IMG/VR virus record: IMGVR_UViG_2740892274_000005
Strand: one strand, 5' to 3'
From: a virus
Taxonomy: Duplodnaviria; Heunggongvirae; Uroviricota; Caudoviricetes
Length of the DNA: 44,169 bases
Made by a program: the position numbers and the translations under genes. This document shows positions 1,722 through 9,986 of the stretch, piece by piece (position 1 is the stretch's first letter; every line of letters starts with the position of its first letter). The notes below the pieces were generated by a model that was not told where the DNA came from, ran no database searches, and saw nothing but the letters and a program-made list of their open reading frames with translations.

Positions 1722-2084
1722 GGGGCTGATTCTGGATTCGACGGGATTTGCGAAACCCAAGGTGCATGCCGAGGGGCGGTTGGCCTCGTAAAAAGCCGCA
1801 AAAAATAGTCGCAAACGACGAAAACTACGCTTTAGCAGCTTAATAACCTGCTTAGAGCCCTCTCTCCCTAGCCTCCGCTCTTAGGACGGGGATCAAGAGA
1901 GGTCAAACCCAAAAGAGATCGCGTGGAAGCCCTGCCTGGGGTTGAAGCGTTAAAACTTAATCAGGCTAGTTTGTTAGTGGCGTGTCCGTCCGCAGCTGGC
2001 AAGCGAATGTAAAGACTGACTAAGCATGTAGTACCGAGGATGTAGGAATTTCGGACGCGGGTTCAACTCCCGCCAGCTCCACCA
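1722..2084 (+). ncRNA. ssrA: tmRNA (transfer-messenger RNA, SsrA), 363 nt
   Basis: Starts GGGGCTGATTCTGGATTCGAC and ends GGGTTCAACTCCCGCCAGCTCCACCA (tRNA-like acceptor/T-arm with encoded CCA). Internal tag reading frame GCAAACGACGAAAACTACGCTTTAGCAGCTTAA = ANDENYALAA-stop. Candidate -10 TATACT at 1702..1707. Confidence 0.97.
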
Positions 2085-4370: not shown

Positions 4371-4829
4371 TTATTCAGTCGGCAGTGCTACGCGCCAGGG
4401 GAGCAGTTCGCCGACCCGGTTTATCGGCCAGTCGGCTATGACGTCAAGGACATAGCGGAGGTAGCTTTCTGGCTCCACTCCGTTCAGTTTGCACGTCCCG
4501 ATCAGGCTGTACAGCAGCGCTCCCCGCTCTCCTCCATGATCCGAACCGAAGAACAGGTAGTTTTTGCGGCCCAGACTGACCATCCGCAACGCATTTTCAG
4601 CGATGTTATTGTCCGCCTCAGCCCAGCCATCATCTGCATAGTACGTCAGCGCCGGCCACTGGTTCAGGGCATATGCGAACGCTTTCGCCAGTTCTGAGTG
4701 TCGCGACAGGGTTTTCATCTTTTCACGCAGCCAGCTTTCCAGGGATTTCAGCAGCGGTTTCGTTTTCAACTGACGTTCGGCAAGGCGCTGTTTCAGCAGG
4801 AAGATGTCGTCAGAAGAGATGTCGTTCAT
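4371..4829 (-). pseudogene. IS66-family transposase TnpC, C-terminal fragment only (about 150 aa)
   Basis: Translation ...IAENALRMVSLGRKNYLFFGSDHGGERGALLYSLIGTCKLNGVEPESYLRYVLDVIADWPINRVGELLPW... matches the conserved C-terminus of IS66 TnpC. The N-terminal two-thirds is absent; the frame closes just before the prophage right end. Confidence 0.8.
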
Positions 4830-5047: not shown

Positions 5048-5785
5048 TCATTCACTCTCTTTCAAACCAGTTTTAACTGTTTGTGGTTTTGGGTAAGGCT
5101 GGACTTTGAATAGCTTTGTGTTAAGGCGTTTTCTGGCTCTCTTGTCCAGAAACCGGATGTAACGAAACTGACGGAATTTATGAACACTGGCTCTGTCGAT
5201 ATTAGCCCGCAGATGTTCACCTCGCTGTCCTCCTCGTTTGATTGCATTCTTGCAAATCTCGTGATACCACTCGCCATCAAGTTCATAGAATGTTGTTTCA
5301 TGACTGCCTACATAATCAAAATTGCTTGCCTGGTACACGACACCAAGACAGCCACAACGCTCATCTGCAAACGACTGAACCCACTGCACCTGCGGATAAA
5401 GTTGTCTGATTAGTTTGAGCGCGTAACTGATTGCCCTTGATTCGGAGTTTCTCGGCATACAGTCATGCAGCCATAACCGGTTAAGCTCCATATATTCGCG
5501 GTTCTGCGTGCCAGTTACGACGCGTGCACCATTGTTTGGATTAAGGGCATAACCCCATTGCATTACGCCAACCAGCTCCCGTTCTGAAAATATGCCCAGA
5601 TGAAGGTAGGAATTATTTACGAAACGATGGCTGTAATGTTTATTGACGACGACCAGCCGGGCCAGCCAGCAACTTATTGTCTCAACCCGTAACTCACGGG
5701 AGCCATAACCGACGATATTGTCGTTATAGTGAATAAGTTCAGGCGTGCTGATGATACGGGATGTAACTTGCTTTCTGTTCCCCAC
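5048..5785 (-). CDS. mom: Mom-like DNA modification protein (adenine carbamoylmethylation family), start inferred at internal GTG
   Basis: Last gene before the right end and overlapped by a Com-like gene, as in Mu. Proposed start GTG at 5785..5783 preceded by AGGAAA with a 9-nt spacer (245 aa, against 231 aa for Mu Mom). The tracked 310-aa ORF 5048..5980 would run through com and is not favoured. Identity rests mainly on synteny. Confidence 0.6.
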
Positions 5786-5939
5786 GACAGGATTTCCTTG
5801 TGTATGTGGGGTGCTCTGTGGCGCTCTGAGATGTGATTTGATTGAGGGTTTTACAGCGCGGACATTTAACTTCCAGATAACTGAAGCTGGCTCGTGCCAG
5901 TAGCTTGTTACAATGTCGGCACCGTATGTTTCGATACAT
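5739..5939 (-). CDS. com: Com-like zinc-finger translational activator of mom
   Basis: [34 protein letters not shown]...EHPT... matches the Mu Com pattern (IRCKNCNKLL...IEIRCPRCK...EHPT) as I recall it. ATG at 5939..5937 with AGGAGG 10 nt upstream. The 3' end overlaps the mom start, as in Mu. Confidence 0.75.
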
Positions 5940-5984
5940 GGCCGCATAACCTCCTGCTTTGTTGTTGATATCTTTATCACTCAA

Positions 5985-6075: not shown

Positions 6076-6195
6076 AATTTTAAACGGTGCTGTAACGCAT
6101 AAGTGCTGAATGATTGTACATTTGAATACCGCAAAGCAAACAAATCAACTAATTTATAGAAGTCAATTGGTTAATTGCCAGCGTAAGAGGCTGCT

Positions 6196-6489
6196 ATGGA
6201 CAATCATGTAACGACGAGAAATCGAAAAATGATTGAAAATGCGGAAATCTATAATGATTATTTTTCCGATTATTCAGATGCCTGCAAATACAGTTCGAGT
6301 GCGGGAGAGTTCATATGCTTCAACTTTTTTATTAAATCTTATGTTTTTCCTCCACAGCAAGAAGATGGAGGTGTGCCACCTCCTGAAATCACTTTGCACC
6401 GTATAGCCTCCGTCTCAATGATGGAGCAACAGGCTAATGAGCTGTATAGCATTCTGGGAACGATTCTACAAAAGCGTGAATCGGACTAA
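6196..6489 (+). CDS. Hypothetical protein (low-GC moron), divergent from com-mom
   Basis: 97-aa ORF with AAGAGG 6 nt upstream of the ATG. Visibly AT-richer than the phage backbone. No family recognised. Confidence 0.5.
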   Translation: MDNHVTTRNRKMIENAEIYNDYFSDYSDACKYSSSAGEFICFNFFIKSYVFPPQQEDGGVPPPEITLHRIASVSMMEQQANELYSILGTILQKRESD

Positions 6490-6656
6490 TGATACCGGTT
6501 CATTTGCCTGCCCGGATGGGGAAGCAGGATTGACTGCTCCATAAGCAGCTATATTTCTGAATACGAAATACTATCCAGCGATTACATATGGCTGGATAGC
6601 GGCAAAGATGTTTTCATTAGTGTCAAACCGGCAGAGGACACCACCGGTTTGTATTG

Positions 6657-6911
6657 TTACATCATGGTACTGTCAGTTCCGGGCTGAGCCGGGTCTGGTT
6701 GCTCTGGCTGCGCGTCGGTTTTCGGCTCATTATCAGCATCACTGGCCGCAACTGCTGGCCCAATAAGTTTTGCCAGCACTTCATCAACGTAAGTGTCGAT
6801 TTGTGCCTCAAAATCCTTGCGGACCTGCGCTTTCAGCAACTTATTTACTTCACCGGAATACAGTGCCTGTTTTACCAGGTCTTCAGTGACGGTGCCTTTA
6901 ATTTCTGGCAT
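6657..6911 (-). CDS. Hypothetical acidic 84-aa protein
   Basis: ATG at 6911 preceded by AAGGAGGA with about 6-nt spacing. Translation MPEIKGTVTEDLVKQALYSGEVNKLLKAQVRKDFEAQIDTYVDEVLAKL... then an acidic/Pro-rich tail. No family recognised. Confidence 0.6.
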   Translation of the reverse strand: MPEIKGTVTEDLVKQALYSGEVNKLLKAQVRKDFEAQIDTYVDEVLAKLIGPAVAASDADNEPKTDAQPEQPDPAQPGTDSTMM

Positions 6912-6946
6912 GTATATCCTCCTTATGCGGGAATAAAGCCCTGCAA

Positions 6947-7129
6947 TCAGGGCTGGGTCGGGTCTTTTGGGAGCGGAGTTACCTGCGCTGTTTTACTGAG
7001 TTTTTCAGCTGCTGCGTCCTCAATTTTGCGGCGAACATAATTTCTGATGGCCTTATAACCACCACTCACCAGATATAACGCACATACTGCCGTGCAGAAA
7101 TACAATAAAATAAGCTGTAAAAATGTCAT
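6947..7129 (-). CDS. Small single-pass membrane protein (60 aa)
   Basis: ATG at 7129..7127 preceded by GGGAGGG. MTFLQLILLYFCTAVCALYLVSGGYK has one N-terminal hydrophobic helix followed by a charged tail. The tracked ORF begins 4 codons earlier. Confidence 0.6.
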   Translation of the reverse strand: MTFLQLILLYFCTAVCALYLVSGGYKAIRNYVRRKIEDAAAEKLSKTAQVTPLPKDPTQP

Positions 7130-7225
7130 TATCCCTCCCAATTATTGACATGGTGTTGACACCGGTAATATCTGTTAGGTAAAAAGGTGCACTGCATTTT
7201 TTGCTTTGGATATAACGATCTTTTT

Positions 7226-7267
7226 GCCGCCGGTTTCTTGTTTTCCCTTACCGGCGGCATTTTTTTA
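7226..7267 (+). terminator. Rho-independent terminator, plus-strand orientation
   Basis: GCCGCCGGT (7226..7234) and ACCGGCGGC (7250..7258) form a 9-bp GC-rich stem, followed by ATTTTTTTA on the plus strand. On the minus strand the hairpin is followed by AAAAAG, so it is oriented for plus-strand transcripts. Confidence 0.55.
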
Positions 7268-7273
7268 TCCTGC

Positions 7274-9328
7274 TTACGCGTTATTCACTTCCACCACGAT
7301 ACTGTCAATCAGTACCGGGTAAGTCGCATTTTTAGTGATATCGGTCACGCGCAACTTGTCTGCCGTAAACGTGCCGACCGGAGACTGCGACAGCATGAAT
7401 GGTGTCCCGTCCTTACCATCAATGACCGGCGTCACCTCAATACTGTTGTTACCGGCAAAACGGAAGCCCAGCGTATGCCATTCGTTATTAAATGCGCCGA
7501 ATGACCCCAGCTTCGTGTTCTGCGCCGTGTTTCCTTTGTGATACATCACGTTAAGGTCTGTGGCATCGCTCTGTACGTAGAACGATGCCAGCAGGTTATG
7601 ACCGGCATTTCCTTCCAGAGTAACCCCTTGCGGCAGGGCAGAAACCGGCCAGTACAGCGCCAGTGCGTACTGATTAGCCGTAAGCGCGCCATCGAGTTTA
7701 AAACGACAACTGACAAGACCACCTTTACCCAGCAGGTCCGCACCATTACCAGCATCATGCTCAAGGTACCAGGGGGCTCTTCCTGTTTCCTTGGTCAGTT
7801 TCATTGCCTTACCCCCGCTGGCTCCGGCATCATCCACGATTTGAGCCTTGCCACCTCCGGCAGCCCAACCCTGTGGTGTCAACCGTCCTTCAGACTCAGA
7901 TGCCCGGTAAGCAAATAGCGTACTCATCGTCGTGGTGTCTGCGGGTGGCGTGGACGGTTTTGATGGTGTATCAGGTGACGGCTTCTCATCCGGTGGTGTC
8001 ACGGTCTGCCCACGCATCAGTTCAGCCGTGCGCCCTGCATGGAGCATAATAGCTGAGGCCAGACGGTCTGAAATGACGCCCCTGCGTGCCCATGAGCTGA
8101 AATGGCTGTCACGCTGTGTCGAAACAAAACTGCCCTGGGTTCGGGATGCTGCACCGTAATACCCGACAGCCACAATATCCGGGTCTTCCGCCGGAGCATT
8201 CGTTGGCGTGCTCTGTCCATTCTCATCCGTCAGGAACGGTACAAAGAAAATTTTCTGTGCTTCCTTGCCTTTGTAGCCACCGTATACTGCCTCATATTTA
8301 TCGGTGCCAGCGTTTTTCCAGTAATACGTGGTATCACCGCAAATCCACGGCACCGTGGTGGCATTTCCACTCACGCACTGCGCAGCAAGCGGAGCCAGGT
8401 CAGTTCTGAACTGCTGAACCATGGCCGTGAATAAACTATTATGCTGCTGGCTTCCTGAGGCAAGGTCTGCCTCTCCCTGCATCCAGACCACAGCCAGAAG
8501 TTTGTTTTTCGGGTTTTTCGCCAGCGCGACTTTGGTGCGGCTTACCAGGTCCTGATACAGAGGTTTACCGGCCCCCCAGCGTGAAGAATCAGCGGAAGCA
8601 CCGCTGGCCTCACTGAATGAGCCGTCGGCTCCAGTGGTGAATGCTGACCCGCCACGACAACAGGGCACCAGAAGTATCCCGGCATTCTGTGGGATATAGG
8701 GAAGCAGTTTTTTGGCAATATGCAACCCCTGACCGACAGTCCCGTACTGGCCTTTTGCCAGATCAGCTTTCGGGTGGTTTATCCCGCTCATATCCTGAAC
8801 ATCATGCAGGCAGTGGTCTGCCGGAATGATGTCGTTGTATGTACACGACGTACCGTTGGGCGTTACCGTACTGCGGCGTGCCAGTTGCTTAATGCGTGGG
8901 TCCGGGCGGTCAAACGAATCCGGTAACGGCAGCCCCTCGCCGTAGGCCATGCCATTTGACTGACCCGCGAGAATGACAACAAAGTAATATTCCGGCTCTG
9001 AACTGCTGCCATTCGTGCTACCGGAAGGCCCGGCGTTATCCGGTGCATTCCAGTCGGAGGGCGTGAGCGTTCCGGCCACGTCAGATGTGATTGGAATGAT
9101 GCCAGTCACGCCTGAACTGGTGATTTCTGCACTGGGATTACCGGATACCGGCATTACCCATAATGGCTCTTTCGTGCTGAAGCGGATCACGCAGTCTGCG
9201 AAGGTGATCCCCCCTTTATTACCCGAAGGGCGGAAAGGGCTTTCAATAAATGCCACCGTGCCACCGGCAACCTTGACTGAAAACTCTCCGGGCATGGCGG
9301 AGAGCATTTTCCACTTGGAGTCTGACAT
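7274..9328 (-). CDS. SGNH/SASA-type carbohydrate esterase-domain protein (sialate O-acetylesterase-like), 684 aa; candidate polysaccharide deacetylase
   Basis: Contains the esterase block YYFVVILAGQSNGMAYGEG (GQSN motif of the SASA/SGNH fold) after an N-terminal region of about 115 aa. C-terminal region of about 250 aa could be a lectin/jelly-roll domain. Not a Mu core gene. Confidence 0.7.
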   Translation of the reverse strand: MSDSKWKMLSAMPGEFSVKVAGGTVAFIESPFRPSGNKGGITFADCVIRFSTKEPLWVMPVSGNPSAEITSSGVTGIIPITSDVAGTLTPSDWNAPDNAGPSGSTNGSSSEPEYYFVVILAGQSNGMAYGEGLPLPDSFDRPDPRIKQLARRSTVTPNGTSCTYNDIIPADHCLHDVQDMSGINHPKADLAKGQYGTVGQGLHIAKKLLPYIPQNAGILLVPCCRGGSAFTTGADGSFSEASGASADSSRWGAGKPLYQDLVSRTKVALAKNPKNKLLAVVWMQGEADLASGSQQHNSLFTAMVQQFRTDLAPLAAQCVSGNATTVPWICGDTTYYWKNAGTDKYEAVYGGYKGKEAQKIFFVPFLTDENGQSTPTNAPAEDPDIVAVGYYGAASRTQGSFVSTQRDSHFSSWARRGVISDRLASAIMLHAGRTAELMRGQTVTPPDEKPSPDTPSKPSTPPADTTTMSTLFAYRASESEGRLTPQGWAAGGGKAQIVDDAGASGGKAMKLTKETGRAPWYLEHDAGNGADLLGKGGLVSCRFKLDGALTANQYALALYWPVSALPQGVTLEGNAGHNLLASFYVQSDATDLNVMYHKGNTAQNTKLGSFGAFNNEWHTLGFRFAGNNSIEVTPVIDGKDGTPFMLSQSPVGTFTADKLRVTDITKNATYPVLIDSIVVEVNNA

Positions 9329-9413
9329 CGTCTTTTCTGCCTGTTTCTGAATTAAACAGAGTCAGAATAGCGACCGCTGAAAAATATGTGTTTTGCGGAA
9401 ATTCAAAAAAGCG

Positions 9414-9986
9414 TCACGGTACTTTTGGTGACGGAGCTGGTGAGGCAGGAAAATAACGATAAAGGGTGGAAAGGCCAATATCAAATATCAGTGCGATTTG
9501 TTTACGGGACTCGCCATTAGCCAGCAAACGGGCGATTTGCTCCCGCTCTTTCTCTGTCAGTTTCTGAGGTCTGCCGCCATGACGCCCCTGAGCACGGGCA
9601 GCAGCAAGACCCGCGCGTGTACGTTCAATAATGAGTTCCCGCTCCATTTCCGCCAGCGCGCCCATTATATGGAAAAAGAAACGTCCCATGGGAGTGGATG
9701 TATCAATATTGTCCGTAATGCTGCGGAAGTTAACGCCGCGTTGCCGGAGTTCTTCTGTTAAAAGGACAAGGTGCTGCATACTGCGTCCAAGGCGATCCAG
9801 TTTCCAGACCAGCAGGGTATCCCCTGGCCGGAGTCGCTTTAATGCGCGTTTAAGTCCGGGACGCTCCCTTGTCTTACCGCTTATTCTGTCTTCGAAAAAC
9901 AGCTCACATCCTGCACATTCCAGCGCATTTCTTTGTAGCGCCGTATTCTGGTCATTTGTTGACACCCTGATATACCCAATCAGCAT
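9414..9986 (-). CDS. gin: Serine recombinase DNA invertase (Gin/Hin/Cin/Pin family)
   Basis: MLIGYIRVSTNDQNTALQRNALECAGCELFFEDRISGKTRERPGLKRALKRLRPGDTLLVWKLDRLGRSM... is near-collinear with Mu Gin as I recall it. Lies immediately beside the invertible segment. Confidence 0.93.
   Translation of the reverse strand: MLIGYIRVSTNDQNTALQRNALECAGCELFFEDRISGKTRERPGLKRALKRLRPGDTLLVWKLDRLGRSMQHLVLLTEELRQRGVNFRSITDNIDTSTPMGRFFFHIMGALAEMERELIIERTRAGLAAARAQGRHGGRPQKLTEKEREQIARLLANGESRKQIALIFDIGLSTLYRYFPASPAPSPKVP

Follow-up and report, generated by a model that had tools for sequence, protein, structure and literature searches.

What is encoded on the plus strand between a prophage esterase gene and the two small genes that follow it? 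We addressed this question in IMG/VR virus record IMGVR_UViG_2740892274_000005 (Caudoviricetes), a stretch of 44,169 nucleotides (nt) that we refer to, at its full length, as the window. An earlier note on this DNA had proposed that a short plus-strand RNA faces the gene of a 60-residue membrane peptide, and had taken the two for a type I toxin-antitoxin locus. The section concerned is the right end of a Mu-like Escherichia coli prophage, and the ORFs (open reading frames) of the window and their Pfam matches give the minus-strand order invertase, esterase, DUF1378, DUF826 and com-mom (Table 1). Judged from the sequence and its relatives, the plus-strand RNA is likely a small RNA of the Hfq type associated with the 3′ end of the esterase gene, and the esterase, the opposite-strand small RNA gene, DUF1378 and DUF826 together would form a cargo cassette that prophages conserve. 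It would be a new sequence within the prophage Hfq-type small RNAs that are convergent with a nanS-p-like esterase gene, and its slot has no Rfam family.

Promoter and terminator of the predicted plus-strand RNA

The strong plus-strand intrinsic terminator that the earlier note had described was borne out, with a 10-bp stem and a run of seven T ending 7 nt from the esterase stop codon. Folding of the 76-nt RNA gave −23 kcal/mol (z = −4.7), a stability that none of 200 shuffles reached. Upstream lies a promoter-like element of the pattern TTGAC-N18/19-TAAAAA, which matches the 44-kb window once, where 0.03 matches would be expected. This pattern occurs exactly once in each DUF1378 locus fetched, between esterase and DUF1378 and on the opposite strand, and is retained across unrelated spacers and RNA bodies. 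Its sole other match is in prophage PP2 of strain E2348/69, 8 nt before the mapped and published 5′ end of PasD2. Since the spacing from motif to start is expected to be like that of PasD2, we predict the 5′ end of the window RNA near 7191-7194 and a length of about 75 nt.

The promoter had previously been placed on a different pair of hexamers, TTGACA and TAATAT, from which an RNA of about 90 nt was deduced. Both hexamers are present, and comparison and the published data on EcOnc37 (below) speak for a short RNA. The pair itself, TTGACA at 7145-7150 with TAATAT at 7166-7171, is probably not the promoter, given its 15-nt spacer and its lack of conservation among variants; it was placed 11–14 nt too far upstream, and the conserved promoter-like pair shortens the predicted RNA to about 75 nt. 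In window-like variants TAATAT becomes TAATAC and the first TTGACA becomes TTGATA, TTAATA or TCGACA, and both hexamers are absent in the other RNA classes. Our simple scan overlooked both the terminator and the promoter; it accepts only loops of 3–8 nt in terminators and spacers of 16–18 nt in promoters. The two TTGACA copies form a direct repeat, ATTGACA-N4-GTTGACA, at 7144-7161 (+), of which the second copy alone is retained in the different classes, the first being 5 nt away from the ribosome binding site (RBS) of DUF1378.

It could be argued that there is no discrete RNA here, the hairpin and T run serving only to halt stray plus-strand transcription into the esterase gene and the hexamers being chance matches. 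An upstream plus-strand ORF with promoter-like sites at 6175-6489 is consistent with this, and the window variant is known from sequence alone. Such a reading would have to account for the constant distance between the TTGAC-N18/19-TAAAAA motif and the terminator in all loci, although the sequence between them is unrelated and the upstream genes differ, and for the discrete RNAs of matching size detected for the counterparts described below. We regard it as highly improbable.

Table 1. Coordinates of the features of the locus in the window
Feature	Position	Strand	Details
Predicted small RNA, about 75 nt	7192..7266	+	U-rich unpaired 5′ part, then terminator
Promoter-like element	7156..7185	+	TTGACA 7156-7161, 18 nt, TAAAAA 7180-7185
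Intrinsic terminator of small RNA	7225..7266	+	10-bp stem 7225-7234/7250-7259, 15-nt loop, seven T 7260-7266
Hexamer pair of the earlier note	7145..7171	+	TTGACA, 15 nt, TAATAT; probably not a promoter
DUF1378 gene, 60 aa	6947..7129	−	Pfam 109.4 bits; PHROG 494
DUF1378 RBS	7133-7139	−	GGGAGGG, three bases before ATG
DUF826 gene, 84 aa, acidic	6657..6911	−	Pfam 58.7 bits; PHROG 311
DUF826 RBS	6917-6924	−	AAGGAGGA, five bases before ATG
Inter-cistron stem-loop, 7 bp	6937..6954	−	Spans DUF1378 stop codon, then UUUAUU; just before DUF826 RBS
Esterase gene, 684 aa, NanS-p-like	7274..9328	−	SASA sialate O-acetylesterase domain and C-terminal DUF6645
Gin-like invertase gene	9414-9986	−	Pfam Resolvase
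com and mom	5048-5984	−	Pfam Zn_ribbon_Com and Mom
ORF, 97 aa	6196-6489	+	Between DUF826 and com; no family match

The RNA slot in related prophages and its published counterparts

To place the window RNA among its relatives we compared 33 viral contigs with DUF1378, loci from E. coli genomes, and the contigs encoding the most distant DUF1378 proteins, including that of Citrobacter farmeri. Every related locus examined, whether Mu-like, lambdoid or from C. farmeri, had the same order of esterase, a gap of about 135–160 nt (~145), DUF1378 and DUF826, and downstream of this cassette came com-mom in Mu-like prophages or a class II holin and lysozyme in lambdoid ones. On the strand opposite the genes, the gap contained the promoter motif in every case, together with a hairpin followed by a T run. 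Between them we counted 22 distinct RNA bodies of 73–104 nt, which fall into at least six mutually unalignable classes; the hairpin and T run were present in 22/22 distinct variants despite differing stem sequences. One locus, L026, equals the window in the esterase C-terminus, in DUF826, in the 97-residue plus-strand ORF and in mom; the segment in which the two differ begins with the terminator stem, takes in the RNA body and the promoter, and reaches about codon 17 of DUF1378. This mosaic pattern suggests that the RNA is exchanged as a cassette.

The slot is also found after esterase genes in prophages PP2 and PP5 of E2348/69 and Sp4 and Sp12 of strain Sakai. These four loci have neither DUF1378 nor DUF826, and the next gene is a holin gene or an insertion sequence. 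Two of them, PP2 (L006, 2767-3213) and Sp12 (L010, 2238-2685), carry two tandem small-RNA units in the gap between esterase and holin, each unit having its own terminator besides a TTGACA promoter element. PasA/EcOnc51 is the distal unit; the proximal one directly adjoins the stop codon of the esterase gene and corresponds to the lone unit of Sp4 at the coordinates listed for EcOnc52.

The slot in the window is the one occupied by EcOnc37 in prophage Sp18 of E. coli O157:H7 Sakai. EcOnc37 was reported on the minus strand with a Rho-independent terminator flag and in 5/5 replicates of Hfq cross-linking and analysis of cDNA (CRAC), and the intergenic region ECs4993...ECs4994 ranked 57 among Hfq-bound intergenic regions, with reads that were essentially one-stranded (Tree et al. 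2014, PMC4104026). The present Sakai record gives ECs_4993 as the esterase gene and ECs_4994 as DUF1378, both on the plus strand. The EcOnc37 coordinates in the 2014 table lie ~127 bases below those of the current record, and we settled the position through a read sequence from RNase E cross-linking, ligation and sequencing of hybrids (CLASH). There, EcOnc37 fragments, TTTTCCTTTATGGGTTAGGTAGCTCCCGCCAGCCATATC, were joined to unlinked mRNAs (Waters et al. 2017, PMC5286369). We found a single place for TTTTCCTTTATGGGTTAGGTAGCTCCCGCCAGCCATATC, on the minus strand in the gap from the Sp18 esterase gene to DUF1378. Like the window RNA, EcOnc37 lies in a Mu-like prophage, in the slot between a DUF6645 esterase and DUF1378, on the opposite strand and with its terminator abutting the esterase stop codon. 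The pattern of the promoter motif is shared as well, here as TTGACT, 18 nt and TAAAAA. It differs from the window RNA in having an unrelated body, a length of about 94 nt and an extra 5′ hairpin, and the flanking Sp18 proteins are 67–74% identical to those of the window.

A second set of counterparts comes from lysogens in which the gene after the slot is not DUF1378. PasA (85 nt) and PasC (79 nt) of enteropathogenic E. coli E2348/69 are encoded downstream of esterase genes, on the other strand; Northern blots confirmed both, their stability requires Hfq, and their listed homologues in enterohaemorrhagic E. coli are EcOnc51 and EcOnc52 (Pearl Mizrahi et al. 2021, PMC8550237). A later study describes the gene order esterase-PasA-holin-lysozyme and how diverse these RNAs are (Zhu, Shabalina and Storz 2026, bioRxiv 10.64898/2026.05.13.724894). 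PasA/PasC and EcOnc51/52 share with the window RNA a TTGACA −35 element, an A-rich −10 element, a terminator with a T run and the place after the esterase on the opposite strand; PasC ends one base from the esterase stop codon, and both PasC and EcOnc52 abut that codon as the window RNA does. They differ from it in the spacing of the −35 to the A-rich element and show no sequence similarity to it, and the C-termini of the adjoining esterases are only 36–37% identical to that of the window. Related cargo is found on the other side of the same esterase gene. The AsxR/AgvB anti-sRNAs (anti-small RNAs) and the STnc100/PasD pair (RF02703, RF02702, RF02076) are likewise Hfq-binding prophage RNAs with conserved ends and variable bodies, and the PasD2 promoter has TTGAC-N18/19-TAAAAA as in the window. 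Unlike the window RNA, they lie upstream of the esterase in lambdoid prophages, and none was found in the window at the Rfam gathering threshold.

Similarity searches returned little at the slot itself. At the gathering threshold Rfam found only tmRNA (transfer-messenger RNA) in the whole window; in the related loci it found STnc100 and AsxR upstream of the esterase and nothing at the small-RNA slot. A permissive Rfam search of 6500-7400 gave a weak match to Esr41 (RF02676) at 7186-7268 (+), owed to the terminator and the U-rich stretch. We rejected this identity, as the score of 22.2 bits compares with a gathering score of 102 and Esr41 lies on island SpLE1, with no esterase gene beside it. 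In blastn-short and nhmmer searches the window RNA matched no other sequences than window-like variants and EcOnc37, the latter solely in the T run and the 3′ arm of the terminator; no similarity was found at the PasA/PasC positions of L006, L007, L009 and L010.

The predicted RNA itself has the design expected of an Hfq-binding small RNA. AUCUUUUU stands directly before the 10-bp GC-rich stem, which is followed by the seven-U tail, that is, a Rho-independent terminator with a long U tail after a U-rich unpaired stretch. Its own promoter and discrete transcript are predicted by comparison, namely from the motif in all loci and the PasD2 5′ end. Together, these features suggest the following model. 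The cassette is located in the late operon just before the holin gene in lambdoid prophages, and here, in a Mu-like prophage, between the invertase and com-mom. From its own promoter the RNA (~7192-7266) would be transcribed toward the esterase gene and stop at the terminator before the esterase stop codon. Its U-rich unpaired body, GC-rich stem and seven-U tail would allow binding of Hfq. If it behaves like its positional counterparts EcOnc37, PasA/PasC and EcOnc51/52, as is most likely, it is bound by Hfq in the lysogen and base-pairs with mRNAs from other parts of the genome, and the range of its targets is set by the variable body. For the particular sequence variant in the window, we infer expression, Hfq binding and action on distant targets from these counterparts.

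Several points weigh against this model. The −10 element, TAAAAA, is without the usual final T. The 5′ end of the window RNA is a predicted one, and the reported 5′ end of PasA may itself be a processing product. The link to EcOnc37 and to PasA/PasC is positional and architectural and is not one of sequence homology, since the PasA/PasC positions lack similarity and EcOnc37 is alike only in part of the terminator. DUF1378 was never found without the RNA slot in all the DUF1378 loci compared, as would also be expected if the RNA were the antitoxin of a DUF1378 toxin. Finally, the RNA is by construction fully complementary to the spacer between esterase and DUF1378 in the operon transcript, so it may have a role in cis.

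If cis pairing were the chief function, the convergent RNA would act as an antisense guard that pairs or collides with transcripts reading out of the esterase gene, distant action being secondary. In the lysogen this would reduce how strongly DUF1378 and DUF826 are expressed and, where the prophage is lambdoid, the holin and lysis genes as well. The place of the slot fits this, for it always lies exactly between the esterase stop codon and the next gene and is convergent with the esterase in both prophage types; there is no sense-strand terminator at the slot, and the 3′ end of the esterase mRNA is among the chimeric partners of PasA. We nevertheless consider a guard of this kind unlikely. No lysis genes follow in the Mu-like context, EcOnc37 hybrids formed with unlinked mRNAs, and a hypervariable body between a conserved promoter and terminator fits diversification of distant targets better, because any sequence would serve for pairing in cis. 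The two functions might also be combined. The slot would then be an exchangeable small-RNA cassette site with a dual role, cis silencing of esterase read-out and Hfq-dependent retuning of host genes in trans, a proposal that we hold to be quite doubtful. If it were true, cis silencing would be a lysogen safeguard resembling toxin-antitoxin control and covering DUF1378 and the lambdoid lysis genes, and DUF1378 would be a lysis-related or otherwise harmful membrane peptide kept in check by the RNA.

The model of an Hfq-type small RNA with distant targets has consequences beyond this locus. It is known from pathogenic E. coli that small RNAs encoded by prophages, beside nanS-p esterase and Shiga toxin genes, retune the regulation of the host. 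Every esterase-DUF1378-DUF826 cassette examined would carry an RNA gene of this kind, with a common promoter and terminator and an unrelated body, and the promoter-terminator rule offers a simple aid for annotating these unlisted RNAs, which have no Rfam family. The natural body swaps would provide a set for studying how prophages diversify RNA regulators.

One pairing within the cassette was seen on the side. The unpaired part of the RNA, 7191-7224 (+), forms a long imperfect duplex with 9301-9340 (−) across the esterase start codon (−19.5 to −20.7 kcal/mol). Only 3.7% of shuffles did as well at that site, but in a scan of the whole transcript 37/60 shuffles equalled it, so this pairing is not significant and serves as a lead only. 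The seed of the RNA had no match to the DUF1378 and DUF826 starts.

DUF1378, DUF826 and the toxin-antitoxin proposal

Both small ORFs with strong ribosome binding sites that the earlier note had called are present, and both matched Pfam families well above the 25-bit cut-off used for DUF1378 and DUF826. DUF1378 has one membrane helix, N-terminal, of uncharged hydrophobic residues at about 3-22, after which come K26, R29, R33, R34 and K35 and a basic and acidic tail. Among 12 homologues (55–87% identity) 20 columns are invariant, mostly in the membrane helix and the basic segment that follows it, and the family ranges over Escherichia, Shigella and Citrobacter only. In the alignment of DUF826, the N-terminal 50 residues are conserved and give way to a variable acidic, proline-rich tail; the available homologues are at least 63% identical, and the conserved part is the 50-residue helical segment. 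Neither protein had a match in NCBIfam or among PDB sequences and solved structures, their PHROG families have no known function, and literature searches with the DUF1378 and DUF826 names and locus tags found nothing on function.

In the toxin-antitoxin proposal, DUF1378 would be a membrane-damaging peptide and the RNA its antitoxin, which would prevent translation of the DUF1378 mRNA or set off its decay by pairing in the 5′ untranslated part. The likeness to hok/sok, tisB/istR-1, zorO/orzO and ibs/sib is a small hydrophobic peptide gene with an opposite-strand short RNA gene by its 5′ side. DUF1378, with 60 residues and a single membrane helix, agrees with the small hydrophobic peptides (usually under 60 residues) of such systems, and the RNA is fully complementary to the transcript 62–137 nt upstream of the DUF1378 start codon. 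Its constant company with the slot was noted above, and in the mosaic locus L026 the RNA body, the promoter and the first DUF1378 codons were exchanged together.

These features were outweighed by others. The RNA, which had been described as overlapping the 5′ region of the membrane-protein transcript, overlaps neither the RBS nor the start codon of DUF1378, ending about 62 nt upstream of the ATG, and the strong, exposed RBS is left uncovered. The interaction of the unpaired part of the RNA with the DUF1378 start reached −9.2 kcal/mol against a shuffle mean of −11.9, weaker than 84% of shuffles. A consensus scan of 7130-7273 found no sigma-70-like promoter on the minus strand, although a weak or unusual promoter could escape such a scan. 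We therefore think that DUF1378 is probably read as part of the esterase operon. The hairpin at 7225-7259, read on the minus strand, is followed by AAAAAGAUCGU and does not form an intrinsic terminator for the esterase operon, in agreement with the earlier statement that no minus-strand terminator separates the esterase from the small genes.

The wider comparison also speaks against a toxin and its antitoxin. The slot persists beside esterase genes that lack DUF1378 and DUF826, so the peptide and the RNA do not form the unit that such a pair would. Hfq binding and numerous distant partners are documented for EcOnc37, PasA and PasC, and the name ECs4994, that of the Sp18 DUF1378 gene, is absent from the CLASH supplements (PMC5286369). 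DUF1378 matched neither the Pfam toxin families nor the PADLOC defence models, and PADLOC gave the small proteins only a marginal PbeC match (E 0.008). The gene also lies in a phage late operon, directly before the holin gene in lambdoid prophages, where toxicity would need no antitoxin. In all, the window departs from the type I systems in having no toxin promoter that we could find, an uncovered RBS, a slot that also exists without the peptide gene, validated counterparts that bind Hfq and pair with numerous distant RNAs, and a peptide gene inside a phage operon. We thus judge a type I toxin-antitoxin locus very unlikely, and would annotate the locus as a prophage small RNA with two conserved small proteins of unknown function.

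The alternative offered in the earlier note, that the two proteins are partners of the esterase, agrees with the strict order esterase-DUF1378-DUF826 in both prophage types; it stays a conjecture as to what they do. That linkage in two unrelated prophage backbones, including Mu-like ones in which no lysis genes follow, suggests a role for DUF1378 and DUF826 tied to the esterase rather than to the holin. As part of the model above, both would be translated from the esterase operon transcript as accessory proteins, with no free-standing toxin. The stem-loop between their two cistrons folds at −13.8 kcal/mol (z −2.2) and has a counterpart with an altered stem in the Sp18 class. Weak attenuation is one possible role for it, mRNA processing or stability another.

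The esterase gene and the prophage end

The esterase was identified by DUF6645 (226.5 bits) and SASA (51.3 bits) and belongs to PHROG 143; identical E. coli prophages annotate it as 'DUF6645 domain-containing protein'. Its first 110 residues (8999-9328, −) are common to Mu-like loci only, and lambdoid NanS-p-type esterases have a DUF1737 N-terminus in their place. A gap of 85 nt separates it from the invertase gene.

The 901 bases around the finding are present at 100% identity in 14 complete E. coli genomes, and partial matches occur in 355/5426 genomes. In NZ_AP022815 the identical stretch is annotated as invertase, DUF6645 protein, DUF1378, DUF826, hypothetical protein, Com and Mom, and adjoins Mu-type tail and head genes. 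A megablast search of the phage collection found no match to the region; a more sensitive search found only two Shiga toxin (Stx) phage records, each with an inserted Mu-like phage. Scanning the genome-contig collection with DUF1378 peptide patterns confirmed no relative.

A complete tmRNA gene lies at 1722-2084 (+) of the window (Rfam 295.8 bits), which places the prophage end a few kb from ssrA; the identical end in NZ_AP022815 adjoins rhsC/ybfB. Between the mom end of the prophage and the tmRNA side sits a 152-residue ORF (4371-4829, −) whose translation, judged by eye, resembles the C-terminal part of an IS66-family transposase and is probably a remnant. The com-like ORF at 5739-5984 (−) encodes 81 residues, and its identical copy in NZ_AP022815 is annotated as frameshifted. 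In another frame, a 310-residue ORF (5048-5980, −) spans com into mom, with the Mom domain only in residues 96-298. The plus-strand ORF at 6196-6489 is 80–100% conserved in window-like Mu-type loci, and Sp18 has an unrelated 154-residue ORF (ECs_4996) in its place. Directly past the DUF826 stop codon is an 11-bp hairpin (6625-6652; minus-strand z = −3.0), which has no clear U run on either strand and lies between the convergent DUF826 gene and this plus-strand ORF.

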